A stretch of 60,686 bases of DNA, filler included, from Basidiobolus ranarum (GCA_040143965.1; 8 parts of 8 records of this genome joined end to end with filler, not necessarily neighbours in it), one strand, 5' to 3'. Numbered from the whole stretch's first letter, positions 30,340-60,686 are shown. Numbers and translations are program-made. The notes: a model not told the origin generated them from the letters alone.

Positions 30340-30439
30340 NNNNNNNNNNNNNNNNNNNNNNNNNNNNNNNNNNNNNNNNNNNNTTAATTAATTAANNNNN
30401 NNNNNNNNNNNNNNNNNNNNNNNNNNNNNNNNNNNNNNN
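30340..30439. other. Artificial contig linker
   Basis: N44-TTAATTAATTAA-N44. Confidence 0.99.
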
Positions 30440-37932: not shown

Positions 37933-38032
37933 NNNNNNNNNNNNNNNNNNNNNNNNNNNNNNNNNNNNNNNNNNNNTTAATTAATTAANNNNNNNNNNNN
38001 NNNNNNNNNNNNNNNNNNNNNNNNNNNNNNNN
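37933..38032. other. Artificial contig linker
   Basis: N44-TTAATTAATTAA-N44. Confidence 0.99.
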
Positions 38033-41000
38033 ACTAAAACTTGGCATATAGCTGATTCTTGTTACGGTTCACAATGAAAACAAGCTCTCTCATTTTGGTA
38101 AACTTTAATAAAGAATTGAGCCAAAATATCCTCAACTTGCAGTCAACAAATGTCCCACCATAAGTAGATGTGTCATTGTTTGAATAGATTATCCCATGGC
38201 TAAAACAATAATACTCCATATCTTGATCCATCTCACCAAGAACTCTGTCATGCAGCCCTCCTGTAAATACCATCAGATAATTACACAAACAAATTAGTCT
38301 GAGTTACATAGGTACTTACTTGGTGTCCATGGATTGGGCTTTGTTGTTGTTATTGTACTCAAACAATGCAAAAACCTGAGAACACATTGAAAGGAGCCCT
38401 TTGTTGGAAGGTTGATATACTCTGGAGTCTCCATAACCCATTGCATTACATCCATCACTGATTTTGCTGATACACTGTTAAACAGATTAGCATATGGTAC
38501 TATTGACAGTGTCACATGGAGCATCATTTCACCGCATGTGGCTCCACTGGGACTCCTAGAATCTATAGCAAGGGCCTATAATCTTTAAGCATTGTGAAAG
38601 ATGCAGCAGGGAATGTAATGAATACCAGCATAGATTCAGTCTATCTTTTTTAAACCTGTAATAAAGTTTTGCATATCCAATTACAAAATCTTTGCTCAGT
38701 CAATGTATCTGCCTGAGATCTGCCAATGTGAGTTGATGCAGTAAGAATATGTTAACAATATCCACAAACAACTCCCAATGTTACCAATACTTATCAGGCA
38801 GAAATCTTTTCAAGATTCCACCTGAATATATACAAATTCAATGCTTCCAGTCTTTGCACTTGAATTTATGCCCAGATGAGTGGATGTTGATGGGAGTCCT
38901 GGTAAAATATGATGATATCTTGGTATTTAAAAGCATTTTCCCAATTGATTCAAACTTTGATCCTATCTCAAATGCCTCATTCATATTGAATTTTCCACTA
39001 TATAGCTGGGTAAGTAGGATTGGAATGTGATTGAATAGTAAGTGCATAGTGCCTAATGGCAAGCTCTGGCTCCAGCTGATCTCCTTTAGCAATATAAACT
39101 TGGACTTACAGCTAATGCCAGGTTGATGTTGGACTGACTATTTGGTAAATTGATATCAGTGATCATGTTGAAATCTGACCAGGCTCTTGATGGTAAAACC
39201 ATGGGTTTTAGTTTTATATTTGGAAAGTAGTAATGCATATGCCTGATAGAGTACCCCATTAATTTGACAAAATCTACAACAGGATAGTGCATGGTTCCTG
39301 CAAAAACTCCAAGTTTACTGATGGTAGGAGTGTCACCAATACATATAATTAAATTGGCATTGATAAAATATGCATGGATCTGCACCTCATTACATAGCCA
39401 TTCAAATTCCTCAATCAAAGGCTCCAAGAAGCTATCTATAAGCACTGGAAATTTATGTCCAGATATGATGGATAGTATCAACATAGTATGACTCTTATAC
39501 CATTCAGAAGGAGGATGACTTATGTTAGTTAAGACTATTTGCCAGCAAGCCTTTCCAAAGGTATAATTGTTTTGTAAGAAATTGTCCAGAACCAATGCAA
39601 ATGCATGATCATACATGTTTTCAAAGAAACATTGTCTTTTCAGATTCTGGTAGTGATATCCATCAAGTATATTGGTAATACCATCAGCTTTATGGTGAGT
39701 ACTTCAGTATTGGATTGATAATTTATAATTGGGTGATTTCATCAAAACTTTATGGCTGGGAATCAACAATATGTAAACCAAATATCAATGATATTTACCT
39801 CATTCAGAAGATTGCCAATTGTGTGCAGACAGTACATGATTTCAGGTTTTTCAGATCACCAGTGAATGCCAAGTAACCATTTGGACATGAAGGTAGTTTA
39901 ATTACTGAAGGATCATAAGTCGTACAATTGACAAGTGTTTTCCAGTCATACCAGGTCTGTGGCAAGCACCAGTTGCCAATCAATTATGGTAAAAGTGTAA
40001 GAAAACCATTAAACACCTGGTTGCTAAGATGGGATTGAACTTTCTACTCTTCAATAATCACAGCTGCTTCCTTTACTGCAAGTGTTACGAGTGGACTAAT
40101 CAATTCCAGATACCAAAGAGTCCATAACAAAATCATTGTCTTCTTCTTCAACTTCTGATATACCACCATCAGTACTGGAATAACCAAGGTCAACCTTTAT
40201 CAGCATAGCCTCAAAGTTGTTTAGACTTACTGGTTTGACACAGGTTGCATTTCTATCTATATCATTTGGGTTATTAAACTGTGGTAACTCCACAGTATCT
40301 TGACTTTTGGCAATGTTATCCAAACTTTGAGGCAAAATACAGTCAGTGGACTCAGTGGGCAAAACCTATGCCAATTTTGTGCACTTATTACTGATAATAT
40401 TCACCAGGCTTTGTACAGTGACTGTGCTTATGATTATTTTTTTTATGAAGCCTCTGCCTTTCATAGCACAAGAATTTGTGACAATAATAGCAGGGCTTTT
40501 TTAAACATTTGTGATGTGGCAAGAAAAGGATATTTTGGAAAAAAGAACCCCTCCTATATAAAGGTGGTATTTTAGGTATAGCCCATCAGTGTCATCAGCT
40601 GATTCTGTGATGGTGTCAAAGATGAGACATCAGGGGATCTACAAGATCTTTCTGGTAATGGATGGCAATTTTGATTTATTGTAGGTTGTTTCTAAGCTAT
40701 TTCATTACACCAAGTTTACCATCGTAAAGTTTCAATGCCATAGAAAAACTGTTCAAAATCTAAATCAAAATTGGCTTCCAAGCCAAAGCCTGCTGCCACA
40801 AATGGAAAAAAATCAGCAAGAAGAGAGGACTTAATTGATGAGCAGTCTAGTGATCCACTATTGACTTTGGAAGGCATTAACATGCCGGAAACTAACTCAA
40901 GTAATGATGAAGCATTAATCAATTACAAGATATGTTCCTTTCCAGCAATAGTGCAAGTGAAGATATTGTAATCCTCCAATTACATAGTAAATCAATAGTT

Positions 41001-42625
41001 GAGTAAAGTTCAACCAAAACACTGTCAAGGCCATCCACTTCCAAAATGACTACTTTGCCCACTATTGAACAACCCTCTGCCAAAAATTTGGATAGAATTA
41101 TTACAACAAGGTAATCACAGACAGAGCACCATAATGATTTGTAAGCAATCATAAGTAAAACCTACAAAGTTGCTATACAGTCTATGACAAGTGATAATGG
41201 TGCAATATTGCAACTAATGCAGCATTTGGAAGTGACTAGTTAACAGTTAGCAAGTCACTCAACAATGATACATGACCTTCTGAATGCTGTACTTTAGCTA
41301 CAGCAACATGCTGCTCCCTCAATCCATTCTCATACAGGATTTCAAGCCATCCCATACCATATATATGAATATCATCATGACAATCCAGCAGAGCAGAATA
41401 TGTGTTGGACCACTAAGCCTACACAACAACTTGAAATTGCTTGTGCACATGAAAGTAGAAATCTCATAGGAAAACCAGCAAACTAAAAGGCTCTGAATGT
41501 CAGAGCTGCCAAAACTTAGGTTCTTGACTTATTTCATGTGGCTTATCCTGGGTTTTTGCAATCAAATGGCAATTGGGCTAGTACAAGCATATCATGAAAA
41601 ATCTCAAAAATGTACACAACAATTGACTAGCAAGAGAATGAAAAGTAGCTAAGGAAGTACTCAAGGAGCACAAAGTTAATAAAGCCAAGGAAAAAGCAAA
41701 GGAACCAGTGAGTTTAGGCTCTACGGTCCTACTTACCAATTTCTTTACACCATTACGGAGATCTGCATTTCTGGAGTCAGATATACTGGGAAAAAAGCTT
41801 AATTTCACCATGGAATCAGGTACCCTGGTTGGAAGAGTGGTAAATTTGGAACTTTATCCAACACCTGGCCTCTCTCAACAAGCCAAAACTGTAGCAAATA
41901 AAACTCATTGCTCTCCAACTGCTACTGGTACTTTTCAAAGTGTTGGAAATAGCCCCAAAGTTAAAGGCAAGCAAAAGCAGCACAAACACTGCCAAGCACC
42001 CCCAGTAGTGTCACACTACAAGGATGCATGAAAATAGTTAAAGTGCATGTGGAGTACTTTCAACAGCATAAAGGTAAAAACACAGTGTAAGTATGCAGAA
42101 AGTGGCTTCAGAAGAAGAACATTCAACTTGACATTCAGTTGGGAGTTGACCATGCAGATATCTGGAAAGAACTCAATACAGAGTGGCACAATATCACAGG
42201 GAATCTGCCAGATAGCTGAAAGAATGTTGATTCAGCAACATTAATAGAATGGTGGGCTTTGATGGAGATATTGATTCAAGCTCATGTTAGATATGAGCTA
42301 AACCTTGGGTATGAAGAACTCTATAAAAATATTCAATAGAATATATTACAGAAGCTATGAATTTTGAAGGTGACAAATTGGCATTTGAGTGGTAAATGTG
42401 AAAAAATTTGAGTTACATTTTTGCATATATATTGAGCCATAGTTCTCTGATATTGTAGCCAATCATGTGCAACTATTTTTTGAGATCTTGAAATTTCACT
42501 GATGAAGCTGATAAAATTGATTAAAATCAAATCTAACTTGACAATTCTATGACAGTGAGTAAATGGTCAATCCCAAATGGATGAAAATTGTGACAATTTC
42601 CCTAGAGTAACAATTCTCAAATTTA
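38033..42625 (-). mobile_element. Decayed CACTA/EnSpm-superfamily element, copy A (transposase pseudogene on -, about 38040-40360; divergent ORF2 on +, about 40735-42300)
   Basis: Tnp2-type motifs SCPNG.LAFTG, ALVLD, LILSIISG...LIDSFLEPLIEEFEWL, CIGDTP, MHLLFN.IP, FKCKDWK and HSLLHL. Many stops; homologous to copies in contigs 7 and 8. Confidence 0.85.
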
Positions 42626-42627
42626 TG

Positions 42628-42785
42628 TCTGGGACTTATGTTAGCCCATCAAATATGTCTAACTTGGTGGCTAAAGGTACTTTATGACCTTGATTGATGA
42701 CTGCACAAGATTTACTTTGGTATTGTGTCTAAAATCAAAATCTGAGGCCTTAACTATGATCAAGCACTACAATGAAGAAAAAATC
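42628..42785 (+). mobile_element. Ty1/copia integrase fragment
   Basis: WDLC*PIKYV*LGG*RYFMTLIDDCTRFTLVLCLKSKSEA matches the copia rve core pattern DLxGP...GxRYFxTxIDDxSRxTxVxxLKxKSE. Confidence 0.75.
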
Positions 42786-42849
42786 AGACATATTGCATAC
42801 CATGACATGTGAGAATGTGCGACATGAACCAACTTGTTGGGCTCTTGTG

Positions 42850-43640
42850 ATTAATTGGTGATGTTACCTCAATTCTAGTGATGAGTTGTTCAGATTTTCT
42901 TGTGAAGTAGATATCTTGTCAGGAGTCTCTTCAATTTGGAGTGATCTAATATGTCTATGCAATGGGCAAGATACTCCAATTTGCCTTTGGGAATTCTGAT
43001 TCAATAACTTGTTTAACTTTTCTCTATACATCCCAGTTGATTATTCTTGCCATAGTGTCCCAAAATGTTATTTTGAGCTCTGCAATCTCCATCAACAGTT
43101 GCTGCAAAGTCTCATGGAGTCATGGTAGATATCTATTTAGAATATCTTTTGTCTCTAAAGTTGAGGCTACAATGGTTGCTTCCAGTCCATACTAGCAAAA
43201 ATGTGAGTGGAATCATGTATTTGTTGTCTCAATATTGAAATTTGTATTTATCAGTTCACACTTTATATCCTCATGGGTCTGATTGTATATTTTCTTGCAA
43301 ACTTCTCAAGGCCTGAAGATATAGTACTCTCTCCAAAGTAGAGTCAAAAGTTGTTTCCACTTTTGTCTAATGCCTTCTTTGCCAGCTTGTGTCAAGTTTG
43401 TTAATAACTCCCATATATTCAAGCAAAAATCCATGGTGGATATCTAGGCATCTGTAAAATCATTAGATGCACATGGCTTTGTGCCATCAACTCCTTCATC
43501 TGTCTGCATATGCAAAATTTTGGAAGTGGTGGTTTCCAGTGCCAAAATAGTTTGTGAATCAGGAAGAATCTGCTTTGACATGATAGGTAACTATCATATA
43601 TATCTATGATGTTAGACTCCATTGGTTTCAATCAGAATGA
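42850..43640 (-). mobile_element. Possible non-LTR (LINE) reverse-transcriptase remnant
   Basis: In order on the minus strand: FAYAD (YADD-like), EYMGV (KYLGV-like) and YGLEA. Heavily deleted. Confidence 0.4.
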
Positions 43641-43949
43641 GAGATCTTTTTATATTATTGGTTAAATTGTGAAAGATAATTTCTATTATGTGGTCAAGCA
43701 TCAAGCATCAAGCATTCTACTTGAAGCCATTTCATTATGTATGCAAAATAATTTGATTCAGATTTAATTATGATTGACTTTGCTGATGCAATTTATTTTG
43801 TAATTTCCATGCAATTTACATAATTGAAACAATTGGGATAATAAATGCAAACAGAAATTTTATCATGCGGATTATAGGGAACTTTACCATAATAATTGAA
43901 ACTCTTGGATAAATATTGCATATGAGCAGGAGCAATTAGTATTGAGCTA

Positions 43950-44860
43950 GCTCAATACAAGATTAGTATCATACTCTCCATCTACTCAAAATGGTCATTC
44001 CTCATTAATCTAAAAGCAACTACTGGCCTTCCTCTCAACACCCTACAAGATATATTTGAGAAATACTGTGGCTCATGTACTCCTATACCTACCAGAAAGC
44101 AGCTAGTCAATTTGTCTTGTTACTTCAAAAACTGTTGTCAAATCAGATTTTGGTGCACTATTAATGGTAGCAAAAGTGGGAGATGTTTCCATAACTGGCT
44201 TCAAGTAAGTAGGAATTAGATAGCTTCAAAGATGAATGATGTTGAAGGTGCCTGGGACAAAAGATTTGATGACTCCAATTTCTTTCCATTTCCTGTAATA
44301 TTTCCCAATAGAGTTCATATCGGAAGTATTCTTGATATATATCCTGTGAGAATTAACAGGCTCAAAAGTAACCAAAAGTTATTCTGTTCTGGCAAGTACA
44401 AAGCTCACTATGTAAAGTTCTAGGCTTTGACAGATGTGGATGGAAATATCATTTGGTTGAGTGGGCAACATATAGGGAGACACCATGACAAATGGCTTTG
44501 GGTTGAGAGGCATGGACCGTTTGTAACATATGAGAAGACAATAGCTGATTTGACATATGTTGGGGAAGAATGCAGAGGGCTAGGATATGTCACAGCTAAC
44601 AAGAGGTCCAGAGGAGGGATACTCACAGAGAGGCAAAAGCTTTACAATTAGCATTTTTCCCATTTTAGGGCATACATAGAACATAGATTAGTTTTCCTAA
44701 AGTGATATAGCATTGTAGCAGGAAAGTATAGAGGAAAATCATTTTGCAGGCCTCAATCAAAGTTAGGCAAAGTAGTCATAATCTGGATTAATACTCAATA
44801 CATCCATACTCAAAGATATCCATTGAGAGTACTAGACTGAAGACATTATGAATGAAGCTT
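43950..44860 (+). mobile_element. PIF/Harbinger-ISL2EU (DDE_Tnp_4-like) transposase pseudogene
   Basis: NQKLFCSGKYKAHYVKF*ALTDVDGNIIWLSGQHIGRHHD...IADLTYVG...KRSRGGILTERQKLYN*HFSHFRAYIEH...LK*YSI...KYRG. Confidence 0.8.
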
Positions 44861-45055
44861 TCATCATCTTTTGGATGTCACTAATATCTAAAAGTACTTT
44901 TGCTAAATATACCACATTAGTAAAACTACTGTTTCTGAAATGGTAATTAACATTATGCCAGATATTGCCCAATTGTGCTAATTTGTGCTGGCACACTTTT
45001 TAGCTGACCTGCTCTGGCTCAACAAAATAGAACAAGCGTTTTCAATGATATTAGC

Positions 45056-45523
45056 TTAAATAAAAGAATTACCCTTCTTAACCCCAATTGACAACCATTC
45101 AAATTCTGCAATCAAAGGCTCCAAGAAGCTATCTGTAAGCACCAGTGATGTAGGTCCAGATACAATGGGTAGTAACAATATATTATGACTTTTATACTCT
45201 TCAGTAGGAGAAAGACTTACACTAATTAAAATTATTTGGCAGAAAGCCTGTCCAATAGTGTATTTGTTTAGGGAGAAACCATCCAGAGCCAATGCAAATG
45301 CATGATTATATGTGTTCTCAAAGAAACCTTGACTTTTCAGATTCTGGTAGTGATATCCATCACCTATATTGGTAATACCATCAGCTTTATGATGAGTACT
45401 TTGGTATTGGATCAATGATCTATATGTGGGTGATTTCATCAAAACTTTAAGACAGGGAATCAATGGTATGTAAGCCAAACATGAGCAATAATTACCCAAG
45501 TCAGTGATTGCCAATTCAGTGCA
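45056..45523 (-). mobile_element. CACTA transposase fragment
   Basis: YHYQNLKSQGFF..AFALALDGFS..ILLLPIVSGP..DSFLEPLIAEFEWL, paralogous to 39400-39800. Confidence 0.85.
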
Positions 45524-45623
45524 NNNNNNNNNNNNNNNNNNNNNNNNNNNNNNNNNNNNNNNNNNNNTTAATTAATTAANNNNNNNNNNNNNNNNNNNNN
45601 NNNNNNNNNNNNNNNNNNNNNNN
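45524..45623. other. Artificial contig linker
   Basis: N44-TTAATTAATTAA-N44. Confidence 0.99.
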
Positions 45624-46263
45624 CAAAGCACCCTCAGTGGTGTTACACTACAAGGGTGTACAAAAATAGTCAAAGTGCTTGAGGAGCATTTTGAAAAGTA
45701 GAGGGGAAAAACACAGTTCAAGTATGCAGAAAGTGGCTTCAGAAGAAGAACATTCAACTTGACATTCAGTCTGGTGTTGACTATGCACATATCTGGGAAG
45801 AACTTAATATGGAGTGGCACCATATTTCAGGGTATCTGCCAGATAGCTGGAAGAATGTTAATTCAGCAACACTTATACAATGGTGGGCTTCGACGGAGAT
45901 ATTGATACAAACTCATGTTGGATATGAGCTAAACCTTGGGTATGAAGAACTCTATAAAAGTATTCAGGAGAATATATCAAAGAGACTAGGGATTTCAAAG
46001 GTGACATATTAGTGTTCAAGTGGTAATTGTGTAAAATTTGAGTTACGTTTTTCACACATGTGTTGATCCATAGTTCTCTGAGATTTTAGCCAATCAGGTG
46101 CAACTATTTTGTGAGATCTTGAAGTTTCACTCCTGAAACTGAAATATTGATTAAAATCAAATCCAACTTGATGATTTTATGATGGTAAGTAAACGGTCAA
46201 TCCCAAATGGATTAAAATTGTGACGGTTTTCATACAATAACAATACTCAAATTTCTGTTAGGG
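45624..46263 (+). mobile_element. CACTA-family ORF2 end and terminal arm, ending ...TTTCTGTTAGGG
   Basis: Collinear with 41990-42625 and 53209-53539. The end is the reverse complement of CCCTAACAGAAA. Confidence 0.8.
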
Positions 46264-47480
46264 CTAACCAAATCGGACTATTTACACTTGCCTGTAGACT
46301 TCTCTCCATCCCTGTTCTCAAATCTTGAAACCCCCCAAGGAGGGCTTACCTCTTATTACCCATCTTTCACAAGCTTCTGTGCTAAGTGAAAGGTAGCCTC
46401 CACCATTGAACAATTGCTATAAGTGCATCCTTATTAAGACACTACCAGTTGAGTTTACAGTTGTTTTTGATTAAAGAAGCTTTAGTACTTGATCAAGATA
46501 CCAGCATACTCTTTTGTCAAGGTACAAATCATTTCTTCCACAGAAAGTTTGATATTTCATTGTTATTATCATTCCAAGAGAAACATGGGGTTTTAAACTT
46601 CCCCCTTGCAACATAGTAAGTATTATATCCACACCAGCCCTCACAATGGAAGATGTTATGCAAGCCCTTACTCAGCTTCAGCAAGAAAATAAAAAAAATT
46701 GTGCTTCTCTTGCTCAATTACCAAATTCAGCTCCACCCAACAATCCTGCAAATCCAACTCCTTAACCAAACATCATCTTATCAAATAAGTTTGATGGCTG
46801 TTGCCAAAACTATTGTGATTTTATCAACCAAGTAAACTCATCATCCAGCTACATCCCCATTGCTACCCCTCTGACCAAACAAAAGTAGGCTTAGTGGGAA
46901 CACTATTATCAGGAACAGCTCTATCTTGGTTTGCTCCTTTTATGAAAAGTCAATCTCATCTTCTTTCAAAATTCCTTGCCTTTCTTGCTGAACTGGAAGC
47001 TACATTTGGAGATGCAGATAAGGAAAGAGCTTCCACCACCAAGCTCTGTGTATTTAAACTAGGGTCAAAGCCTGCATCAACTTAAGCTGCAGAATTCCAC
47101 CTTCTTGCCTGTGATCTCAATTGGGGAGAATCTGGCCTGATCAACCAATTCAATATGGAGTCTGAGAAATTATTGAGGATCTTTTTCTCACTATGACTGA
47201 CTTGGTGACCTTGACTGATGCTATCCATCAGGTAGTTAAATGTAACCACCAGTTGTTTGAAAGACAACAACAAAGAAATATGGCTCCTTTCTTCTCTCCT
47301 TCCTCATCTACTTTCAGACCTCCCTTGCATCAAACACAAAATACAACTCAAGGAGATAACCCAATGCAAATTGATGTAACTCAATTCAGAAAGCTTAGCC
47401 CTAAGGAGAGATATTGAGACCAACAAGAGAATCTATACCTCTATTGTGGAGCTCCTGGACATGTAGCCAGAATACAGGAC
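46264..47480 (+). mobile_element. Ty3/gypsy remnant: partial LTR (to about 46612, ends CA) plus decayed gag from 46646
   Basis: KFDG..FINQV..IQLHP.CYPSDQTKVGLVGTLLSGTALSWFAPFM..LEATFGD, AAEFHLLACDLNWGESGLINQF, PMQID and zinc-knuckle remnant LYCGAPGHVA. Confidence 0.8.
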
Positions 47481-47489
47481 TTCAGATCA

Positions 47490-50400
47490 ATTTAGGATTG
47501 TTGTTTTAGGGAAAACCATCACAATTTTTGCATGTGCAAAAAACTTAACACAAATTTTTCATATTTACCATTAAAATGCTAATTTGTCACCTTTGGAATT
47601 CCTTGTTTCTTTGATATATTCACCTGAATACTTTTATATAGTCCTTCATATCCAAGGTTTAGCTCACATCCAACAAGAGTTTGTATCAATATCTCCATCA
47701 AAGCCCACAATTGTATTAATGTTGCTGAATCAACATTCTTCCAGCTATCTGGCAGGTACCCTGCAATATTGTGCCACTCTGAATTAGGTATTTCCAGATA
47801 TCTGCATGGTCAACACCAGACCGGTTGTCAAGTTGAATGTTCTTCTTCTGAAGCCACTTTCTACATACTGGCCCTGTGGTTTTCTCTTCATACTTTTGAA
47901 AGTACTCCTCAAGCACTTTGACTACTTCCATACATCCTTGCAGTGTGACACTACTGGGGGTGCTTTGCAGTATTTGAGTGGCTTTTAGCTGACCTTTAAC
48001 TTTGGTGCTAATTTCAACACTTTGAAAAGTACAAGTTAAGGATGGTGAGCCGTGAGTTTTATTTGCTGGTGCTTTGGCTTGTTGAGAGATGCCAGGTGTT
48101 GGATAAACTTCAAAATTTAGCACTCTTCCAATTGGTTTACCTGGTTCCATGGTGAAATTAAGCTTGTCAGCCAGTATATCTGACTCTGGAAATGCAGAAC
48201 TTTCGAATTGGTGTAAAGAATTTGGTAAGTGGGACAGTAGAGCCTAAGCTCACTGGCTCCTTTGCTTTTCCCTTGGGTTTACTAACTTCCTGCTCCTTAA
48301 GTACTTCTTTAGCTACTTTCTTTCTTTTCCAAGTCAATAATTGCATATATTTTTGATATGTTTCATCAATAGGCTCATACTAGCCCAATTGCCATTTGCT
48401 TGCAAAAACCCAGGATAAGCCACATGAATATATAAAGAACACTCAGAGCAATGCCTGGTTTTTGGTTTTTCCTCAATTGGCTCAAATCAAGGTGATTTTG
48501 GGCAAGATTCTGCACAGTTTCCAAAATGGCAAACTGCTCATCATCAGAGCAAGTGATGGCAGCTCTGACATTCAGAGTCTTTTGGCTTGCTGATTTTCCT
48601 ATGAGATTTCTAATATCATATGCCCAAGTAATTCAGGGTCATTGCTTCCAAATGCTTCATTAAGCAAAATATTGCAGTATTATTGCTTGCCATAGCCTGT
48701 ATACCAGCTTTGTGGTTTTTTACTTATGATTGCCTACAAATCACTACAGTGTTCTGTCTGCAATTCCCTTGTTGTAATAATTCTATCTAAATTTTCCATA
48801 GAGAGTTGTTCAATAGTTGGCAAAGTAGTGGTTTTGAAAGTTAATGGTCTTGACAGTGTTTCAGTTGAGATTTGCTCAACTGTTGGTTTACTACATATTT
48901 TAGGGATTACAATTTTGTCACTTCCACTATTGCTAGAGAGGCACAAATCTGGTTAATTGGTCAATGCTTCATCATTAATTGAGTTAATTTCTGGCATGCT
49001 AATGCTTTCCAAAGTGGATAGTGGATTGCTAGACCATTCATCAATGAGGTCCACTGTTCTTGCCAATTTTCTTCCTTTTGTGCTGGCTGGCTTTTGCCTA
49101 GAAGCAGATTTTGATTTTGATTTTGAATGCTTGTTGAATGGCATTGAAATATTCAGATGGTAAGCTTGGTGTAATGAGATTGCTTAGAGACAGCTAATAA
49201 TAAACAAAAATTGCCATCCATTAGCTGAAATATCTTGTAAATCCCCTGATGATTCATCTGTGACACCATCTCAGAATCAGCTGATGATATTGATGGGCTC
49301 TACCTGAAATACCACCCTTATGTAGGAGGTGTTCTTTTTCAATAATATCCTTCTCATGCCACAGCACAAATGTTTAAAGAAGCCCTGCTGTTAATGTCAC
49401 AAATTTTTGTGCTATGAAAGCTGGAGGCTACATAGAAAAAGTAATGACAGGCATGGTCACTGTACAAAGCCACCAGCTGCACAAAGCCAGGTGAATATCA
49501 ACAGTAATATGTACACAAAATCTACTTTAGTTTTACCCACTGAGTCCACAGGCTGTGCTTTGCCACAAAGTTTTGGTAACACTGCTAAAAGTCAAGATAC
49601 TATGGAGTTACAACAGTTATATTAACAGAATTATGTAGGTAAAGATACAACTTTGGTCAAACAAATAAGTCCAGACAACTTTGAGGATATGATGCTAGAT
49701 GATGACCTTGGTTATTTCAGTACTGATGGTAGTATTTCATAAGTTGAAGAAGAAAATGGTTTTGTTAAAGACTCTTTGTTTGCTGCCATCATTGGTACAC
49801 TCGTAACACTCACAGTAAAGAAAGTAGCTTTGTTTATTGAGGAGTGGAGAGTTCAATCCAATCTTGGCAACCAGGTGTTTACTGGTTTTCTTACACTTTT
49901 ACAATAGTTGAATGGTAACTGCTGCTTGCCAAAGACCTAGGGCAAGTGGAAAAAACTGGTCAATTGTATGACTTATAATCCTTCAGTAATTAACCTTCCA
50001 TCATGTACATATGGTTGTTTAGCTTTCACCAGTGATCTGAAAAACCTGAAGTCATGTACTATTTGAAGAAAGTTTGCAATCACTGAATCAGGTAGATATT
50101 GTTCCTATGTGACTTACATATTATTGATTCCACATCATAAAGCTTTGATGAAATCACCCAAATATATATCATTGATCCAATACCATTGCACTGAGCATAA
50201 AGCTGATGGTGTTACCAATATACTTGATGGATATCACTACCAGAATCTGAAAAGTTAAGGTTTCTTAGAGAACATCTTTGATCATGCATTTGCATTGGCT
50301 CTCAATGATTTCTCACTGAAGAAATATACCATTGGAAATTCTTGCTGGCCAATAACGTTAGTTTACTTAAGTCTTCCTTTTCTGAAAAGTACATGAGTTA

Positions 50401-52030
50401 TAATATTTTGATACTATCCATCATATCTGAGCCTAAATCACCAATGCTTATAGATAGCTTCTTGGAGCCTTTGATTGCAGAATTTGAATGGTTATCTAGT
50501 GGGTTTTGGATGGGTGAACATTGTATTAGAGGAATTGTCATTTTATGTATTGATGTCACTCCTGACATCAGTAAACTTGGAGGTTTTTGCAGGCACAATG
50601 AACTATTTTGCTGTAAATTTTGTTGAATCAATGGAGTCTACTCTATCAGGCATATGCATTACTATTGTCCAAGCACAAAACTAAACTCCAGGATGTTACC
50701 ATCAAGAGCCCAGTCAGATTTCAACATGAACACTAATATTACTTCACCAAATGGTCAGTCTATCATCACACTCCGTACACAGAATAAGGGAATGAATACC
50801 AGAGGAAAACTATAGAAAGTGCAAATATAGGGTCAGGAATACCTTAAGAAAATGGTAGGAAGAAAGGACTGGTAGAGAAACTGTAAGAAAATTGTTGCAA
50901 TATCAGCACAATACCATTATAAAACAGTCAGAAAATAGTATGAAATGCAAATTTAAGTTTTCTTTGTTAGGGACATGGTATTTGCCATATATCTAAGATT
51001 ATATTGCCAAAGGCAATCAGCTGGAGCCAAAGCTTTCTATCAAGCACTATGCACTTAGTATTCAACAACATTCCAATACTACTTACTCAGATATATAGTG
51101 GAGAATTCAATATGAATCAGCCATTCAAGATAGGATCAAAGTTGGAATTGATTAGGAAAATGATTCAAGATATCAAGATACCATCATATTTTACCAGGAC
51201 TCCAATCTATATCTACTCAGCTAGGCATTTATTCAAATGCAAAGACTGGAAGTATTGGATTTGTATATATTGAAGTGGAATCTTGAAAAGATTTCTGCCT
51301 GATCAGTATGGGCAACATTGGGGGTTGTTTGTGAATATTGTGAATATATTCTTCCAGCATCAACTCACATTGGCAGATCTCAGGCAGATACTGCAAATGT
51401 GCAAAGATTTACTAATTGCATATTAAAAACTCTATTACAGGCTTAAAGTAGATAGATTGAATTTATGCCAGTATGCCATACATTCCCTGCTGCATCTTAC
51501 ACAATGCTTAGAGATTATAGACCCTTGCTATATATTCTGGGAGTTCCCAATGGAGTGTACCTGTAGTGAAATGATGCTCTGTGTGAAATATTCAATAATA
51601 CCATATGCTAATATGATGAACAATGTATCAGCAAAATCATGATGGATTTAATGCAATGGGTTAAGGAGACTTTGGAGTATACATAGCTTCCAATAAAGGG
51701 CTCTTTTCAATGCGCTCACAGGCTTTTGCATTGTTTGAGCACCATAACAGCAACTAAACCCAATCCATAGACACAGAGTAAGTACCTCTATAATTTGGAC
51801 TAATTTGTTTATGTGATAATCTGATAGTATTTCTAGGAAAGCTGCAAGATAGACTTCTTGGTGATATATATCAAGATGTGCAGTATTATTGTTTTAGCCA
51901 TGGGCTAATCTGTTCAAGCAATGACACATCAATTTGTAGCCAGACATTTGTTGACTGCTAGTAAGGGATATTTTGACTGAATTCTTTAAGGATATTTGCA
52001 AAAATCCACAAACTTATTCTCATTGAGAGT
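47490..52030 (+). mobile_element. Decayed CACTA element, copy B, inverted relative to copy A (ORF2 on -, about 47590-49144; transposase on +, about 49500-52030)
   Basis: ILILSIISEPKSPMLIDSFLEPLIAEFEWL, GFCRHN..CCKFC, MHLVFNNIP, FKCKDWKYWICIY, IHSLLHL and FWEFPME. Confidence 0.85.
50772..50972. mobile_element. 201-bp MITE-like insertion in the copy B transposase, with imperfect TIRs and a 2-bp TSD (AC)
   Basis: Absent from the paralogues near 39125 and 56265. Ends are TCCGTACACAGAA and TTCTTTGTTAGGG, flanked by AC at 50770-50771 and 50973-50974. Confidence 0.7.
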
Positions 52031-52099
52031 AGTAACAAGAATCAGCTATTTGTCTGATTTGACTTTTGATTGCATACATCTCATTATGGTGTTATGCCT

Positions 52100-52926
52100 G
52101 AGATTCTCTTGATGTAATAATTCTATCCAAATTGTATAGAAAGGCATGTTCAGTAATGGCAAAGCAGGTATTTTGGAAGTTGATGGTCTTGAAGGTGTTT
52201 CTTTTAGTCTTTGCTCAACTATTGACCTACTATGTAGTTAGGTGATTGTAATCTTTTCACTTGCTCTATTGCTAGGAAGGAACACATCTGGTAAATTGAT
52301 TAATTCTTTGTCATTACTTGAGTCAATTTCTGGCATGTTAATGCCTTCTAAGGTAGACAGTAGATTGCTATGCTCCTCATCAATGAAATCCTCTGTTCTT
52401 GCTGGTTTTGTTCCTGGTGTGCCACCAGGCTTTTGCTTGGAAGCCAATTTTGATGTAGATTATGATTGCTTTTTGAATGGCATTGAAATATTAGATGGTA
52501 AACCTAGTGTAATGAAGTTGTTGAGAAACAGCTTATAATAAATCAGCATTACTGTTCATTATTGGTAAAATCTTTTAAATCCCCTGATGACTCATCTGGG
52601 ACAGTGTCTCAGATTCAGCTGATGATATTGATGTAAAATACCTAATATACCACCCTTATGTAGGAGTTGTTCTTTTTTCTACAATATCCTTCTCATGCTA
52701 TGACAAAACATTTAAAGAAGCCCTGCTATTATTGTCACAAATTCTTGTGCTATGAGAGCTGGCAGCCTTGTAGAAAAACTAGATTCCCCATCTTAAAGCT
52801 TTGATGAAATCACCCAAATATTAATCATTGACACAATATGAATATACTCACCATAAAGCTGATTGTATTACCAATATAGTTGATGGATATCACTACCAGA
52901 ATTTGAAAAGTCAAGGTTTCTCTGAG
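52100..52926. mobile_element. CACTA-family fragment (ORF2 5' end, intergenic region and a transposase piece)
   Basis: ASKQKP...EDFIDEEHSNLLSTLEGINMPEIDSSNDKELIN is paralogous to 40771-40920 and 48953-49144. Confidence 0.8.
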
Positions 52927-53108
52927 TGTCATGATTCTGATCTCGGCATACTGATCCACTGCATATGGAACTCTTCTATTATTAGATTATGACATCATAT
53001 CTACTGTGCCATCCCTTCTCGGCAATCTGGTGTCAGTTCATCCAGATTACCTTATATGGAAGTCATGTTCTTTGGAACATTCCATGAAACCTAACCAATC
53101 ATGTCATC
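52927..53108 (+). repeat. LTR-like repeat starting TGTCATGATT (inverted copy at 53540-53793)
   Basis: Interrupts a transposase piece, starts with TG, and aligns by eye to the reverse complement of 53610-53793. Confidence 0.6.
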
Positions 53109-53208
53109 NNNNNNNNNNNNNNNNNNNNNNNNNNNNNNNNNNNNNNNNNNNNTTAATTAATTAANNNNNNNNNNNNNNNNNNNNNNNNNNNNNNNNNNNN
53201 NNNNNNNN
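53109..53208. other. Artificial contig linker
   Basis: N44-TTAATTAATTAA-N44. Confidence 0.99.
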
Positions 53209-53539
53209 ACCTTGGGTATGAAGAACTCTATAAAAATATTCAGGAGAATATATCAAAGAGACTAGGGATTTTGAAGGTGACAAATTAGCATTCAAGTGGT
53301 AATTGTGTAAAATTTGAGTCATGTTTTTTGCACATGTGTTGATCCATAGTTCTCTGAGATTTCAGCCAATCATTTTCAACTTTTTGCAAGATCTTGAAAT
53401 TTCACTCCTGAAACTGAAAAAATTGATTCAAATCAAATCTAACTTGACAATTTTATGACAGTAAGTAAACAGTCAACCCCAAATGGATTAAAATTGTGAT
53501 GGTTTTCCTACAATAACAATCCTCAAATTTCTGTTAGGG
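53209..53539 (+). mobile_element. CACTA-family terminal arm ending ...TTTCTGTTAGGG
   Basis: Closely similar to 45933-46263; the similarity ends one base after TGTTAGGG. Confidence 0.8.
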
Positions 53540-53793
53540 CACAGGGGGATGATGTAAGGATGATCAGGTAACAATCCATGGAAGATCTTGGTGGAAATAT
53601 ACTAATTGTGTGACAATATGATTGGTAATATTTCATGGAATGTTTGAGAGAACATTACTTCCATAAAAGGTAACCTGGATGGACTAGCACAAGATTGCCA
53701 TGAGAGGGTGGCACAGCAGATATGATGTCATAATCTAAAAGTAGAATAATTTCATTTGCAGTGGATGAGTATGCTCAGGTGAAAATCATGACA
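53540..53793 (-). repeat. LTR-like repeat, inverted copy of 52927-53108
   Basis: Ends ...AATCATGACA, the reverse complement of TGTCATGATT. Confidence 0.6.
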
Positions 53794-54709
53794 AAGACTC
53801 CAGACTATAGTAACCTTCTAACATAGGTCTCTTTTCAATATGCTCATGGGCTTTCCCACTGTTTGAGCATGGTAACAGCAATGCAACCCAATACAAGGAC
53901 ACAGAGTAAGTATCTCAATTATTTAGACTACTCTGTTCTTGTGATAATCTGATGGCATTTCTAAGAAAACTTCAGGATAGACTTTTTGTGAGATATAGCA
54001 AGATTCACAGTATCATTGTCTTAGCTATTGGGTAATCTATTCAAGCAATGACATAGCTATCTGTGGCAAGAGATTTGTTTATTGCAAGTTCAGGATATTT
54101 TGGCTGTATTCTTAATGGAAATTTGCCAAAATATCAAATGATTATTCTCCGTGCTAATGGTAACAAGAGTCAAATATTTGCAAAGTATTGACTCTATTCT
54201 AATTTTCAGATGTTCAGCAATTTTTCACTGTTAGTTTGCTAGCAACTCATGTTGATGTTGATGAGTTATCTCTCATCAACCAAATATATGCATATTTAGA
54301 GACTAAATACAATGAGGTTCTGGTATTTTTTGATTCTCATTAAGGCTGGAATACAAAGCCTAAAATATCTAAATAAAGGCATGCATACAAACTTGAATTC
54401 CTATAGCAGTAAACCAAGTAATTTGCCATTAAAAATTGGTTTTTTTGGAAAATTGTGGTAGGAAGTTAAATAACACAATCCATGTATTAAGGAATAATAT
54501 TTCAGCATGTGAGATTACTTTAGCAATACTATCAAGAAGCCACCATCATACCATCAAAATATTTGGCAGAATACAAGCAATCAATATTGTCAAGGTCCTC
54601 TGACAGCTTTGTGCTTGAGAATGGTGGAGCCAGTCCAGATTGAATAGATTTTTTTATTGTTAGGATTAAAAAGTCCTTGCTGCAAGGTTCCACATGACAG
54701 TGCCTCTCA

Positions 54710-57390
54710 CCCTAACAAAGATAAAATTAATTTGATCCTGATTTGATTCACCTTCTCTGGTAGTAATCCTGTCATAGAACTGTGACAAAGTTGTTTGCTG
54801 GTATTTTACCAGATTGAAAGATGATGCAAATTTGGTATCCTGATGCTATTCTAATAGCATTAAGTTGTGTTAAATCACTGATACTCATTCTCTGGCAGGC
54901 ATTTTTTAAATCCTAATGATATAGGAAAAATAAATTTTTTGTCTGGCATTTTGATTGGTTTACTGGTTTAAGAATCTAGCATTCCTTTATTTACAAATCT
55001 TAGGCCTTACATTCCAGCTATAATATGAATCAGCAAATAATTGCATCTTGTTATGATTGGTCTATACATATGCACATACTTGACTAATCAGACACCTTTT
55101 GACAATATTACTACTCTTTGGTATCAGACACATGGTGTAAAAATTGCTGAATATTGGAAATGTTAAGCACCATTAAAACCTGGCAAATAGCTGCTTTTTG
55201 CCACCACAGAAAATAAAAATATGCTTGTTAAGTTGTGTGAGCTTTTGGAATGCATTTGGTCAAATAATCTCTGACTCACAAACTATATATGATCTATTGA
55301 AAGTGCAATTGTCACTACCTGATTATATATGCAAGACTAAGACAAAAAGTACCATGTACCTTAGTCTATATCATGGAGAAGTCTCTCTTGCAGCTTTCCT
55401 TTAAATCATATTGGAAACATGATAGCCATGAAATGGTTCCAATAGATATATATTTGCTAACTCTCCATGCATTTAGTTTTATTGCTTTTATTATGCTCAA
55501 ACAAATCAAAAACCTGTGAGCACACTGGAATGAGCCCTGAGTAGGATGACTACTACTATCTGGAGCTTTTTTAAGCATTGCATGATATCCATTACTTATT
55601 TTGCTGTTACATTATTGATAAGATGGGTATATGGTAGTATTGATGCTTTCACATGTAGCATCATCTTCTTTCTACAAGTATGCTCCATAGGGTACTCTCA
55701 GAATATATAGCAAAGCCCTAGGATTTTTAAGTCATGTGAAAGATGTAGTAGGCTTTTATACAATACCAGTGTAGATTCAGTCTATCTTCTCTAAGTCTCC
55801 AGTAAAGTTTTTTGTGTCCAATTACAAAATCTTTGCAAAGCCACACTAGTAGGCCAAGATTGGGCAATCTGAGTTGATGTTTTGAAAATATATTTACAAG
55901 AACCATACCCACTGCTGATGTTGCAAGTTCTTATGATACAGGAATCTTTTGAAGATCCCACTTGAGTATATGCAAATCCAACACTTCCAGTCTTTGCATT
56001 TAAATAAATGCCTTGAGGAGTGGATGCTTATGAGAGACCTTGTAAAATATGTTGGTAGCTTGTCATTTTCAAACATCCTGCCAATTGATTCAAACCTTGA
56101 TACTATCTTGAATGGTTCATTTGGATTGAACTTTCAATTGTGAAGTTGAGTCACTAATGCTGGAATGTTGTTAAACAGTAACTGAAGTGTAACTAATGGG
56201 CAACTCTAAGTGCAGCTAATCTCTTTGAACATTGGAATTCTAGACCCAGGGCTGATCCCAACTTTGATATCAGACTGACCTATTAGTATATTGCTATCAT
56301 GGAGCATATTGAATTCTAAATGAGCACTTGGTGGTATAATCTTTTTGGTATTGTCTTTGGATAGCAGTGATGAATATCCTTGTTGAGTAAGTACTAAGTA
56401 TGAAACAGAATCTACAGCAAGATAGTGCATTGTTCCCACAAAAACATAGAAGTCTACAAGTGGCTGGGGTGTCACCAATAAATATAGCAAAATTAGATCT
56501 GACAAAATATTGGTTTATATATACTCCATCAGATACCCATTCAAATTCAGCCTGCAATGACTCTAAGAAGCTATCAATGAGCATAGGTGGTTTAGGTCCA
56601 TGTATGATTGATAGTATTTCATTGCTATCACTCTTATACCATTCAAAAGGAGGAATATTTTAGTTAATTAACATCATTGGCCAGCATGCCTTTCTAATGC
56701 TATGTTTGTTTTGTGAGAACCTATCCAATGCCTAGGCAAAGGCAGGATTGTATGTATTCTGATAGAAACTTTGACTTTTCAGATTTTGGTAGTGATATCA
56801 ATCAAGTATATCAGTAATACCATTAGTCTTATGGTGAGAACTTTGTATTGGATTGTTGATCAATAATTTGCCAACTTGAGCAACATTTTGAGATGTGGTA
56901 GCAATGATATATATGGCAATTGGTAACAATATTTAACCAACTTAGTGGTTACCAATTCTTTTCAAAGAATGCATGATATTTTGTTTTTCATCTTACCAGT
57001 GAGAGCCAAACAACCATTTGGGCATGAAGGAAATTTAATCACAGAAGGATTGTATGTCAAATACTAGTTACAAGTTTTCCGTCTTTACCAGGTATGTGAT
57101 AGGCAACAGTCAACAATCAGCTGTGACAGAAGTGCAAGACAGCTGGTGCATGCCTGGTTACTTTAATTGGGGCTGACTCTCCACTCTTTGATAATCCAAA
57201 CAGCTAGTAGACTTACATTTACTGATAATAAGGACTTATGCACACAACTGTTATCATTTTCCTCATCTAATATACTTGCATCAGCACCAGTATAAGTTAA
57301 GTTCTCAGTATCAAGCAGTATATCTTCAAAATCTTCTGAACTTGCTGGTTCCACAGAACCAGCACTACTTGTAGCTAGATTGTGCTCAGG
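54710..57390 (-). mobile_element. More divergent CACTA element: terminus CCCTAACAAAG at 54710 and transposase pseudogene on -
   Basis: FPSCPNGCLALTG, LIDSFLESLQAEFEW, IFIGDTPA..FCGNNALSCCRFC and RHLFKCKDWKCWICIYS. Confidence 0.8.
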
Positions 57391-57399
57391 TAAATGTGA

Positions 57400-57855
57400 T
57401 TGGGAGTATTAGTAGAAGAAGTGGACAAGTCTATTTGCGTTATAGGAGCAAATATGTATTATCTCATCAATGTGAAGGCGTTGATCTACCCAGTGTTTGT
57501 CACAGATTTGCAGCCTCCTATGGCTACCCTGCTTACACAAGCTTCCGGGGTGAGTATTTTAGCTGATTATGTCTACAGCAATTGGTTCCAACAAATCCCT
57601 GAATTGGTACACATGGGCGTGAAAATTAGGATAGAAGGACGCTCAGTGATTATTGAGCCTTCCGAATTGAATGCAGCAAAAGTAGAAGCACCAGACCTTC
57701 GTGCAGGAGTCGCACTCGTGATTGCAGGCCTAGTTGTACCAGAAGGCGTTACAGAACTTTCAGGCGTAGAATATATTGACCGAGGATATGATCATTTAGT
57801 AGCCAATCTTCGTAATTTGGGTGCAGAAATTTGGCGGCATGCAGAAGAAGGCTAG
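57400..57855 (+). pseudogene. murAB: C-terminal fragment of bacterial UDP-GlcNAc enolpyruvyl transferase (MurAB/MurZ type)
   Basis: VKALIYPVFVTDLQPPM, ELVHMGVKIRIEGRS, DLRAGVALVIAGL and IDRGYDHLVANLRNLGAEIWR. The N-terminal two-thirds is missing and several conserved Arg are replaced by Cys, Trp or His. Confidence 0.9.
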
Positions 57856-57882
57856 TATATTTTAATACTGGTAGTCAAACAA

Positions 57883-58410
57883 ATGGAACTATAACTTTCT
57901 GAACTGAAGGAAATAAAATTAACAGACTATTACTTATTAGCGACGGAATTTTATGTTCCTTACTATAATACTAAAGAATCTATCGTCACAATTCTTATAG
58001 CACAAGCCGAAAAAGGTACTCCTAATGCTGGAGAAACATTCTTACGAAGGGAATTGCAAATATCATTACGACCAACTACCAGACTAATGATCTCTTTGTA
58101 TTACTAACAAGCGTCCGGAGGAAGTAATGGATATGCCATGCTTGGTAATTGGGAAGACAGTGTTTTTGAAGTTGACAAGTTGCTCGAAAATGATATTAAG
58201 TTCACTGAGCTGGTTCTAGAGTGTATCTTAAGACTTATTGAAAATAAACAAAATGTTGTCATTTTTATGGATAGCCATTCCACCATGTGCTAATATATTG
58301 AACGGAGAGGTTAATCCCGCTGCATTATATTTCCTAAAGGATTTTTTGAGTCAGTGCAGAAAATTGGCTACATGGTGATTTGATATTCAAAATAGCATTT
58401 ATCACTGCCC
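57883..58410 (+). pseudogene. rho: Decayed, internally deleted bacterial transcription termination factor Rho
   Basis: Across frameshifts: MEL*LSELKEIKLTDYYLLATEFYVPYY..ILIAQAEK (Rho N-term), PNAGET (Walker A PKAGKT), IANIITTNY..DLFVLL, RPEEVMDM, ELVLECILRLIENKQNVVIFMDS (Walker B) and IPP...G.VNPAAL..PKGFF. Confidence 0.85.
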
Positions 58411-58619
58411 ATTTCCAAGTAAAGATATAGTAACCTATGTTAGCATTTATTAGCCTTTACGGAACCTTTTTTATGATATAATTCTTTGTTTTAGACACAG
58501 GAACGTAGCAGTGTGCCAAGATGAAACGATTTTCTCTATCCAACACTCTTCTTCATACTTTATACTCACGTTCATATACAGAGAGTGAATGATTAATCCT
58601 GATATGGGTAATTTCGAAA

Positions 58620-58720
58620 TCATTGCGTCCTTATAATGTCTGAATATAGTCTTGAATGTATAAAAGGGCTCAATAGTATTGTGTTTTCGTACAGCTTCAG
58701 TTGGTTCTTCAACCAGTAAT
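58620..58720 (+). promoter_or_regulatory. TATA-containing core promoter, duplicated at 60022-60110
   Basis: ATCATTGCG...GTATAAAAGGG...GTTTTCGTACAGCTTCAGTTG versus ATCATTGCG...GTATAAATGGG...GTTTTCATACAGCTTCAGTTG; each TATA starts 76 nt before its ATG. Confidence 0.65.
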
Positions 58721-58734
58721 TACTTCCACCAAAA

Positions 58735-59418
58735 ATGTCTCTCAAAGTTACTCTTATCAGCGCCATATTGTTAGCCTCTGTAACTAATGCAGCCGACAAT
58801 CAGTTGAGCACACCTGCTGACCATACTGTTGAACTCTCTGCGCCTAACTTTCTATTAGGTGAGAAGTTGATCGTTGGCGCGGGTACTTATTTTATCATTC
58901 CTGACATCATGTTAGATAAAGAGGTTGAACTCACCCCCGAGGAATCACAAATGCGTCGTACCATCCTTCGGAAAATATTATCTCGCTTGTCAAAGACCTC
59001 TGGGGTCAAGAAACTAGGCAAACTTGTGACCGAGATGCCTCTTGAAACGGATGACCAAAGCGCCAGTACTTCTGTTTCTCCTAATGTGGACAGTGCTGGG
59101 AATAATGATGTTGACTATAGTGTGCATGGTGAAAGGGACATAGATTTAGATACTTCCCCAGAAGAAACTGAGTTACGACGAGGAGGTCGTGGTGGGCGTG
59201 GGCGAGGTCACGGCCGTGGTCGCGGTGGAAGAGGCCGGGGACGTGGTCGTTTTGGCAGAGGTCATGGTCGCTTTGGCCGTGGCCGGTTTGGTAGAGGTGG
59301 AAGATTTGACCGTTTCGGTGGTCGCGGTTTTGGTAGATTCGCCAGATTTGGGAGATTTGGCTATGGTGGATACGGATGGAATGATGATTGTGGCGGAGAT
59401 GATTGTGGAAGCTGTTAG
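58735..59418 (+). CDS. Secreted multi-peptide precursor A (signal, acidic pro, RR, cationic helix, acidic spacer, RR, Gly/Arg-rich peptide)
   Basis: 227-aa intronless ORF in good start context (AAAAATGT). Signal MSLKVTLISAILLASVTNA, TPEESQMRR (aa 67-75), SPEETELRR (aa 141-149). A tandem paralogue supports coding status. Confidence 0.85.
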   Translation: MSLKVTLISAILLASVTNAADNQLSTPADHTVELSAPNFLLGEKLIVGAGTYFIIPDIMLDKEVELTPEESQMRRTILRKILSRLSKTSGVKKLGKLVTEMPLETDDQSASTSVSPNVDSAGNNDVDYSVHGERDIDLDTSPEETELRRGGRGGRGRGHGRGRGGRGRGRGRFGRGHGRFGRGRFGRGGRFDRFGGRGFGRFARFGRFGYGGYGWNDDCGGDDCGSC

Positions 59419-60126
59419 TTGATTTGTACCGAAAAACTGATGATCTTGAGCGATCCTTCGGAATCTCTTTATACCAAATTTTCACACCCTTACCCTACTA
59501 TTCCTTTTGTCTAATGAATAAAATCATTCACCATCCGACTCCGTTCCATGTTAGTAGAATATTTTGATAAGAGTTTGAACATCCCAACAAAAAGCAGACA
59601 CCTGTATTATATTGCGTGAGAAACAAATCTGTAAATATATCTCTCACTAAACACCAGATCAAATACTGATTACTTCCTACTAGAAGTTTTTACTTATGGA
59701 CATCACTACCAATTTGTGCATTCAAGCCGGGATATTCAACAGTACTATTAGTTCGTCTCACTGATAACTTTTATAAATAAGTTGTTTTTTCAAGCATAAT
59801 AAATCCTGTTACCATCTATTTCCAAGAAATACACAGCTGCTTAAGTTATCATTTATTAGCCTTGACGGAACTGTTTTTACGATATGGCCTTCCGGTTTAG
59901 GCACAGGAATGTAACAGTATGTTAGGATGAATTGACAATCTCTCTCCAACATAACTCTCTTCAATACTTTAAACTCGTTAATATAAAGGCAGTGAATACT
60001 GAACTCCAACATCACGACGATATCATTGCGAAACAGTTTAGTATTCAGTGTATAAATGGGCCTGGTATCACTTTGTTTTCATACAGCTTCAGTTGTTTTT
60101 TCTACTATCACTTACTCGTACCAACA

Positions 60127-60686
60127 ATGTATCTCAAAGCTACTATTGTCAGCGCCATACTGCTCGCCTCTCTAAGTAGTGCAACTGACCACAAGCTAAG
60201 CACACCTCCTGGCCAAAATGTTGAATCTTCTGCATCTACTTTTCCACTAAGTGACACGATGGTCATTGACGCGGATACCAATTTCTTTGTTCCCGACTTC
60301 ATGTTAGAAAAAGAAATTGAACTCACTCCTGAAGAATCCCAAATGCGTCGTATCAACCTAAAAAAGGTATTATATCGCTTATCCAAGGCCTCTGGAGTGA
60401 AGAAGGGAAAACTCAACCCACTCAAGGTCAAGAAAGTTAACAATTCTGTGACAGAGATGAGTCCTGAAACAGGTGACCATGACACTAGTAACTCTGCCTC
60501 GCCTGCTGTGGACAGTGTAGAGGATCACAATATCGATTACAGTGTAGATGGTGAGGGGGACACAGATTCAGATGCTTCACCGGAAGAAACGGAGTTACGA
60601 CGAGGAGGCCGTGGTGGACGTGGTGGACGTGGGCGCGGTCGTGGAGGTCGTGTTCGCAGTGGACGCGGCCGGGGACGTGGTCGCTT
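60127..60686 (+). CDS. Secreted multi-peptide precursor B, tandem paralogue of A, truncated at the sequence end (absent from the ORF track)
   Basis: MYLKATIVSAILLASLSSA...PDFMLEKEIELTPEESQMRRINLKKVLYRLSKASGVKKGKLNPLKVKKVNNSVTEM...DASPEETELRRGGRGGRGGRGRGRGG..., open to the end of the sequence. Confidence 0.85.
   Translation, partial: MYLKATIVSAILLASLSSATDHKLSTPPGQNVESSASTFPLSDTMVIDADTNFFVPDFMLEKEIELTPEESQMRRINLKKVLYRLSKASGVKKGKLNPLKVKKVNNSVTEMSPETGDHDTSNSASPAVDSVEDHNIDYSVDGEGDTDSDASPEETELRRGGRGGRGGRGRGRGGRVRSGRGRGRGR

Follow-up and report, generated by a model that had tools for sequence, protein, structure and literature searches.

A broken murA–rho fragment of Paenibacillus type, probably integrated in a Basidiobolus-like fungal genome

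To our knowledge, nearly all claims of gene transfer from bacteria to fungi concern genes that are intact and useful, and the objection regularly raised against them is contamination. For Basidiobolus, Tabima et al. 2020 (PMC7466969) report a bacterial origin for 2–5% of gene models, name Firmicutes as one of the three main donor groups, and describe a screen of the candidates that used coverage and the presence of fungal neighbours. The main text of that report never uses the word "pseudogene", and the available text of a survey of 44 early-diverging fungi (PMC11291939) contains no word beginning with "pseudogen". Decayed bacterial insertions are well known in insects, and pseudogenes of horizontally transferred origin have been described in termites in a recent preprint (bioRxiv 10.1101/2025.03.16.643567). 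The kind of object described below is therefore already known, and is met here in a fungus noted for gene acquisition. A search of the literature returned no paper linking Basidiobolus with murA.

The locus analyzed here holds the remains of two neighboring bacterial genes, murA and rho. Our preferred reading, to which we give a probability of about 0.7, is that this relic of ∼1 kb is non-functional Paenibacillus-type DNA integrated in a Basidiobolus-like fungal nuclear genome. It resembles the acquired genes of PMC7466969 in its host group, in its Firmicutes donor, and in the placement of bacterial sequence beside fungal genes on one scaffold. Those genes, as that report presents them, are intact models from predicted-protein screens, many of them expressed, whereas the relic is a broken fragment of housekeeping genes that a screen of that type would miss. 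With the Wolbachia insertions and the termite pseudogenes, as far as the published accounts go, it shares the state of unselected bacterial DNA that has kept its gene order and has decayed by stops, frameshifts, and deletions. Those cases concern animal hosts, whereas here the host is fungal and the insertion a single 1-kb piece; moreover, Wolbachia is a germ-line endosymbiont, while the donor group considered here consists of free-living soil and gut bacteria. When compared with the murA–rho pair of living Paenibacillus, the relic agrees in order, orientation, and direct adjacency, its MurA part is 64–70% identical to 82 Paenibacillus-type sequences, and its rho remnants align by tblastn in the order of Rho_N, Walker A, RPEEV, and Walker B. 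It differs in keeping only the last 151 codons of murA, in having a spacer of 27 bp rather than the 55–514 bp estimated for 100 Paenibacillus-type loci, and in a rho that lacks the OB domain and the C-terminus, carries stops and frameshifts, and has a GC content of 35%.

The window, by which we mean the whole stretch of 60,686 nucleotides that was analyzed, contains 616 N. These belong to seven identical linkers of the form N44-TTAATTAATTAA-N44 that lie ∼7.6 kb apart, at 7518–7617, 15133–15232, 22742–22841, 30340–30439, 37933–38032, 45524–45623, and 53109–53208. The pieces between them measure 7517, 7515, 7509, 7498, 7493, 7491, 7485, and 7478 bases, and the protein collection records the proteins encoded by the last of these eight on a contig of 7478 bases. 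We therefore take the window to be a series of eight complete contigs from a fragmented assembly, not one stretch of a genome; its features are not to be read across the linkers. The relic lies in the last contig (53209–60686, 7478 bp). The first-pass annotation of this DNA had stated that no linker separates the relic from its flanks, and this is correct: the closest linker is the one ending at 53208, and none falls inside the relic. Other pieces of the window carry ordinary fungal genes (PTR2, aldehyde dehydrogenase, HAM1-like, GDS1) and a Transposase_21 ORF.

On the plus strand, the relic opens with a C-terminal piece of MurA (57400–57855), a frame of 151 codons that contains neither an indel nor an internal stop and runs to a native TAG at 57853–57855. 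It corresponds to the 3′ third of a murA of the MurAB/MurZ type and lacks ∼274 N-terminal codons. That a MurA C-terminal fragment ends at 57855 had been proposed at the outset, and profile and protein searches agree. The segment matches Pfam PF00275 over profile positions 277–416 of 417 (E 2.7e-18; 66.4 bits against a cut-off of 22.8), and residues 275–423 of Paenibacillus MurA align to it with 66–68% identity (tblastn, E ∼1e-64). In most alignments the DNA-level homology to murA starts at 57401, and no match to the rest of MurA was found upstream of 57400 or elsewhere in the window. Judged by its sequence, the piece is a fragment and not the full two-domain enzyme of about 420 aa. The catalytic cysteine of MurA sits in the N-terminal part of the protein, and with the N-terminal two thirds missing the piece is presumably functionless now. 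Its composition is coding-like (GC1/2/3 of 0.61/0.35/0.36), and its overall GC content is 43.9% versus a Paenibacillus median of 51%, with some Paenibacillus species equally low in GC3.

The murA stop is followed by a spacer of 27 bp (57856–57882), with an ATG next at 57883; direct reading of the sequence thus returns the gap that had been reported between the two genes. Beyond it, on the same strand, the fragments of rho appear in the order of the protein. The first is a probable Rho_N relic (57883–58017) covering Rho residues 6–52, with a stop at codon 4 and a deletion of three codons. It aligns by tblastn to residues 6–64 of Paenibacillus Rho (E 2e-12), and 24 of its 45 residues match the Paenibacillus consensus. 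Joined straight to it, with Rho residues ∼53–181 deleted in between, is a Walker A relic (58018–58104) that reads PNAGET and has lost the P-loop lysine, showing AGET where Rho has GKT. A KRPEEVMDM segment comes next in a different frame (58100–58162), followed by a return to the first frame in a Walker B relic, ..NVVIFMDS (58159–58275; tblastn E 3e-10), in which 23 of 37 residues match the consensus. The last recognizable segment, IPP..NGEVNPAA (58277–58366), lies after a short deletion, is frameshifted, and is the weakest, with 10 of 30 residues identical. These colinear pieces, with best tblastn E-values of 2e-12 and 3e-10, bear out the initial description of a frameshifted Rho with remnants of Walker A and B and RPEEV and, in all likelihood, of its N-terminal domain.

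The loss of the OB RNA-binding region of Rho, also noted at first reading, is equally clear. The residues without counterpart (∼53–181) take in this domain, which Pfam places at residues 58–129 (Rho_RNA_bind) in the Rho of locus L001, as well as the first part of the ATPase domain. The last ∼140 residues of Rho are missing too. The Rho homology had been drawn to 58410; it holds for 57883–58366, but the final 44 bp (58367–58410) align neither to Rho nor to the paralogous fungal gene unit described below. Rho carries stops, has been frameshifted at least three times, and has lost ∼129 codons to a deletion, and the segments of its ATPase core are divided between two frames with stops separating them; the gene is clearly dead. 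A Pfam search with three stop-free pieces of it returned no family at E up to 1, so the identification as rho depends on tblastn searches with actual Rho sequences. The GC content of the rho part is 0.348, as against 0.346 in the fungal non-coding flank.

Which bacteria the piece came from was addressed with several collections. A scan of one genome per prokaryote species gave 439 confirmed relatives. The best 80 of these 439 loci are 69–76% identical over their best segment, and 77 of them are titled Paenibacillus, two Saccharibacillus, and one "Bacillus sp." Because the species scan relies on shared peptide words, an even sample of 301 Bacilli genomes was searched as well. All of them contain a MurA match, with 24 standing apart at 66–70% identity (E 1e-60 to 1e-63) and the next best at 56% (E 6e-45). 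In three of the 301, the best match contains one or two stops (G276:C1:3066143-3066586, G179:C17:348243-348692, and G215:C25:72052-72501), which may mean that the genes are broken or that the sequences contain errors. Within three Paenibacillus genomes, the piece is 68–69% identical to the rho-adjacent copy and 39–46% identical to the next-best paralogue; by this measure it belongs to the rho-adjacent MurAB/MurZ-type paralogue and not to the second one.

Among 5.8 billion proteins, the best full-length matches plateau at 67–71% identity, and the named ones are nearly all Paenibacillus. Its relatives in the ESM Atlas are bacterial MurA clusters only. A tree of 87 C-terminal MurA sequences, built by a quick method from 149 columns, places the window sequence among Paenibacillus rows without resolving its exact position, and gives it a terminal branch of 1.51 versus a median of 0.03. 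The genome scan, the Bacilli sample, and the paralogue and protein comparisons all point to an origin that is bacterial and of Paenibacillus type, and in so doing uphold the likeness to Paenibacillaceae proteins that had been proposed at first reading.

Gene order leads to the same donor group. The ORF downstream of murA in Paenibacillus loci is Rho (Rho_N, Rho_RNA_bind, ATP-synt_ab). From 115 loci, a MurA ORF was recovered in 104, and in 100 of these Rho lies downstream on the same strand. The Rho ORF aligns over at least 400 aa in 88 of the 100, none of them broken, and the remaining 12 are not judgeable for length. In the six next-best Bacilli loci outside Paenibacillus, by contrast, the two genes are separated in every case by 1.09–1.35 kb; in the one such locus tested (L112), the gap contains glpX. 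The direct adjacency seen in the relic is thus the order found in Paenibacillus. The first-pass annotation had placed murAB/murZ just upstream of rho in Bacillales generally. This stands for Paenibacillus but not for the six other Bacilli, and that direct adjacency is, in the loci compared, a Paenibacillus arrangement rather than one general to Bacillales is new here. The accompanying claim that the operon order is retained is right, as murA precedes rho on the same strand just as it does in Paenibacillus. When the ORFs of nine Paenibacillus murA–rho neighborhoods were compared with the whole window, all 41 hits fell within 57300–58500, with no second piece.

To the left, the relic meets a truncated and decayed copy of a CACTA/En-Spm-type transposon on the minus strand (55367–57397), its frames broken. 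The stretch 55367–57205 shares 68–72% DNA identity with repeats in contigs 6 and 7, and a transposase relic within it (56378–56842, minus strand) is matched by the Transposase_21 ORF of contig 6 (52% amino-acid identity, E 1.6e-45), which itself matches PF02992 (E 2.9e-7). No stop-to-stop frame longer than 120 aa is present in the contig to the left of 57400. The left flank was correctly recognized at first reading as a fungal CACTA pseudogene. A more sensitive alignment extends the repeat homology, at ∼60% identity, up to 57380–57397. The copies in contigs 6 and 7 run on together for at least 490 bases past that point, which means that the transposon copy beside the relic was cut ∼3 bp from murA. 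No transposon homology was found to the right of the insert. The repeat family as a whole is common in contigs 6, 7, and 8 (38033–45523, 45624–53108, and 53209–57397), with 68–91% identity, and contig 7 has inverted segments within it.

To the right, a fungal gene unit begins on the plus strand (58411–59418), consisting of an upstream region and an ORF (58735–59418) of 227 aa with a hydrophobic N-terminus, RGG/GRG repeats, and a Cys-rich end. Homologues are limited to six proteins of Basidiobolus ranarum, five of them at 40–45% BLASTP identity, and two of these relatives share one contig; the host is accordingly a Basidiobolus-like fungus. A paralogous unit on the plus strand (59818–60686) follows, encodes a protein with the same three features, and is cut by the contig end. 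The two units are 70% identical at the DNA level (58411–59252 versus 59818–60686), and this homology starts sharply at 58411. The description of the right flank as fungal secreted genes was apt in that the homologues are confined to Basidiobolus ranarum, while "secreted" remains a reading of the sequence. The relic is therefore bounded on one contig by fungal DNA on both sides, the transposon copy reaching 57380–57397 and the gene unit starting at 58411.

It is from this position, together with the decay, that we infer integration in the fungal genome. The signs of residence are a disabled rho whose composition equals that of the flank (34.8% versus 34.6% GC) and a murA part whose GC content lies below the Paenibacillus median. 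A fragment of a Paenibacillus-type chromosome that included the 3′ third of murA, the intergenic spacer, and rho would have entered the fungal genome. The piece may have been longer on entry and trimmed later, and end-joining probably inserted it where a chromosome had broken within transposon-rich DNA. The left join would be with a truncated CACTA-type transposon copy, and the right join with the upstream region of a lineage-specific gene.

Were integration confirmed by reads, bacterial DNA would be shown to enter the Basidiobolus genome in bulk and, for the most part, to decay there, and such uptake would be the raw material for the reported 2–5% of acquired genes. For two broken housekeeping genes lying in bacterial order between fungal sequences, either contamination or selection is hard to invoke. 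Frameshift-aware screens of intergenic DNA could measure the true rate of uptake.

The two halves of the relic have not decayed equally. Among positions at which at least 95% of Paenibacillus sequences agree, 17 of 212 (8.0%) have changed in murA and 75 of 262 (28.6%) in rho (Fisher p 6e-9). Two of the rho segments are poorly aligned and inflate this contrast, but with only the three best-aligned segments the figure for rho is still 36 of 164 (22%; p 1.6e-4 versus murA). The corresponding Jukes-Cantor distances are 0.085 for murA and 0.26–0.36 for rho. At the protein level, MurA keeps 66 of the 76 columns invariant among 82 Paenibacillus sequences and has lost 10, while Rho keeps 53 of 105 (83 sequences, 162 aligned residues; Fisher p 2.4e-7). 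The changed share per 75-base bin is 15, 10, 8, 6, 8, and 3% along murA and 11, 28, 28, 35, 29, 24, and 36% along rho, counts that are too small to say whether the change is abrupt where the genes meet or gradual. Of the murA changes, 12 of 17 are from GC to AT. Uniform neutral decay does not fit these data, and the proposal that the piece has been decaying neutrally as a single unit needs revision.

Two explanations for the high divergence of rho were considered and rejected. A divergent donor lineage does not account for the gap, since Rho is at least as conserved as MurA in the six outgroup Bacilli loci; within Paenibacillus, the median pairwise identity over the columns compared is 92.5% for Rho versus 81.9% for MurA. 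A RIP-like process was also dismissed, as the rho changes comprise 41 transitions and 34 transversions and are not of the transition-only kind. Selection is not needed to explain the open murA frame. In simulations with substitutions only, 30% of neutral murA copies keep an open frame at d = 0.085 (P = 0.30), versus 2–5% at rho-like divergence, and we take the open frame to be a chance survival at low divergence.

The 3–4-fold lower divergence of murA most likely means that the halves began to decay at different times or that the local mutation load differs. It can be read in several ways: selection may have maintained a longer murA for some time, whether in the fungus or in the donor; rho may have been dead already in the donor; or the local load of mutation and repair may have varied. 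The strongest competitor to our preferred reading takes up the first two of these courses and supposes a history in two phases, with rho decaying 3–4 times longer than murA. Either a longer murA was selected in the fungus and truncated afterwards, or rho was already a pseudogene in a degenerating, host-restricted Paenibacillaceae donor. This account overlaps with the preferred one, because integration is real in both, and we regard it as possible, though at odds somewhat short of even. It draws on the contrasts in conserved-site divergence and in retained invariant residues, on the many indels and stops in rho when murA has none over 151 codons, on the coding-like composition of the MurA piece, and on the failure of a divergent donor to explain the gap. 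However, we know of no role for MurA in a fungus, which has no peptidoglycan. Rho is intact in all judgeable Paenibacillus loci, which would make a donor that had lost its rho an unusual one. The bin counts are too small to establish an abrupt change between the genes, and the two poorly aligned segments inflate the contrast.

That the unequal decay records a real history of either kind, the fungus having long kept murA under selection after rho had died or the donor having been a degenerating host-restricted Paenibacillaceae, strikes us as rather unlikely. In the first case, an enzyme of the peptidoglycan pathway would once have been useful to a fungus. In the second, with rho dead and murA alive in the donor, the relic would be the trace of an otherwise unknown fungal–bacterial symbiosis. 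In any case, the unequal decay of murA and rho could give a handle on timing.

An artefact of assembly or contamination, in which bacterial reads were falsely joined to fungal ones and the piece lies outside the fungal genome, is decidedly improbable in our estimation, but several observations count toward it and against integration. The contig comes from a fragmented assembly and is both short (7478 bp) and repeat-rich, its left end lying in repeats. In the protein collection the MurA relic stands alone, with one member on one contig, its own. No closer donor or orthologous copy was found among the 5.8 billion proteins, and an exact search of metagenome contigs for a 30-base word spanning the left junction returned nothing. 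Contaminant MurA proteins do receive fungal names, as illustrated by P0225, an intact, Paenibacillus-like MurA of 413 aa that is present on 19 contigs and filed at NCBI as a Hortaea werneckii hypothetical protein; its occurrence in the Hortaea werneckii assembly is probably bacterial contamination. A contaminant would, however, be expected to carry intact genes as P0225 does, so the broken state of the relic speaks against this origin. Two false joins around a 1-kb piece would be required, along with a bacterium having a shattered rho and a murA cut at codon 275, and no such rho was met among the 88 loci in which it aligns well. The match in GC content between the rho part and fungal non-coding DNA is a further argument against a false join.

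It is very improbable that the MurA-derived ORF, whether taken as the 133 aa from the ATG at 57454 or as all 151 codons, is a working fungal gene today. The frame is open to its native stop, a gene caller predicted it (P0001), and the divergence is below that of rho. On the other hand, only the last third of a two-domain enzyme is present, 10 of 76 invariant positions are lost, the terminal branch is very long, and neutral copies stay open often enough at this divergence in the simulations. The ESM Atlas model of the protein is poor (pLDDT 0.48), and no relatives of the truncated form are known: nothing exceeds 70% identity among proteins of 83–265 aa, or 71% among longer ones.

Finally, CACTA elements are known for picking up gene fragments and the piece adjoins such a copy, but the idea that it is a passenger captured inside the transposon and present in several copies is hardly credible, since the relic does not appear to be enclosed by both ends of a single element, the transposon copy breaks off at the junction and no homology to it was found beyond the insert, the related copies in contigs 6 and 7 lack the bacterial piece, and the relic is a singleton. 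Elsewhere in the window, a long frame at 11524–12561, in which no intron is visible, gives weak matches to methyltransferase domains (E 5e-7).
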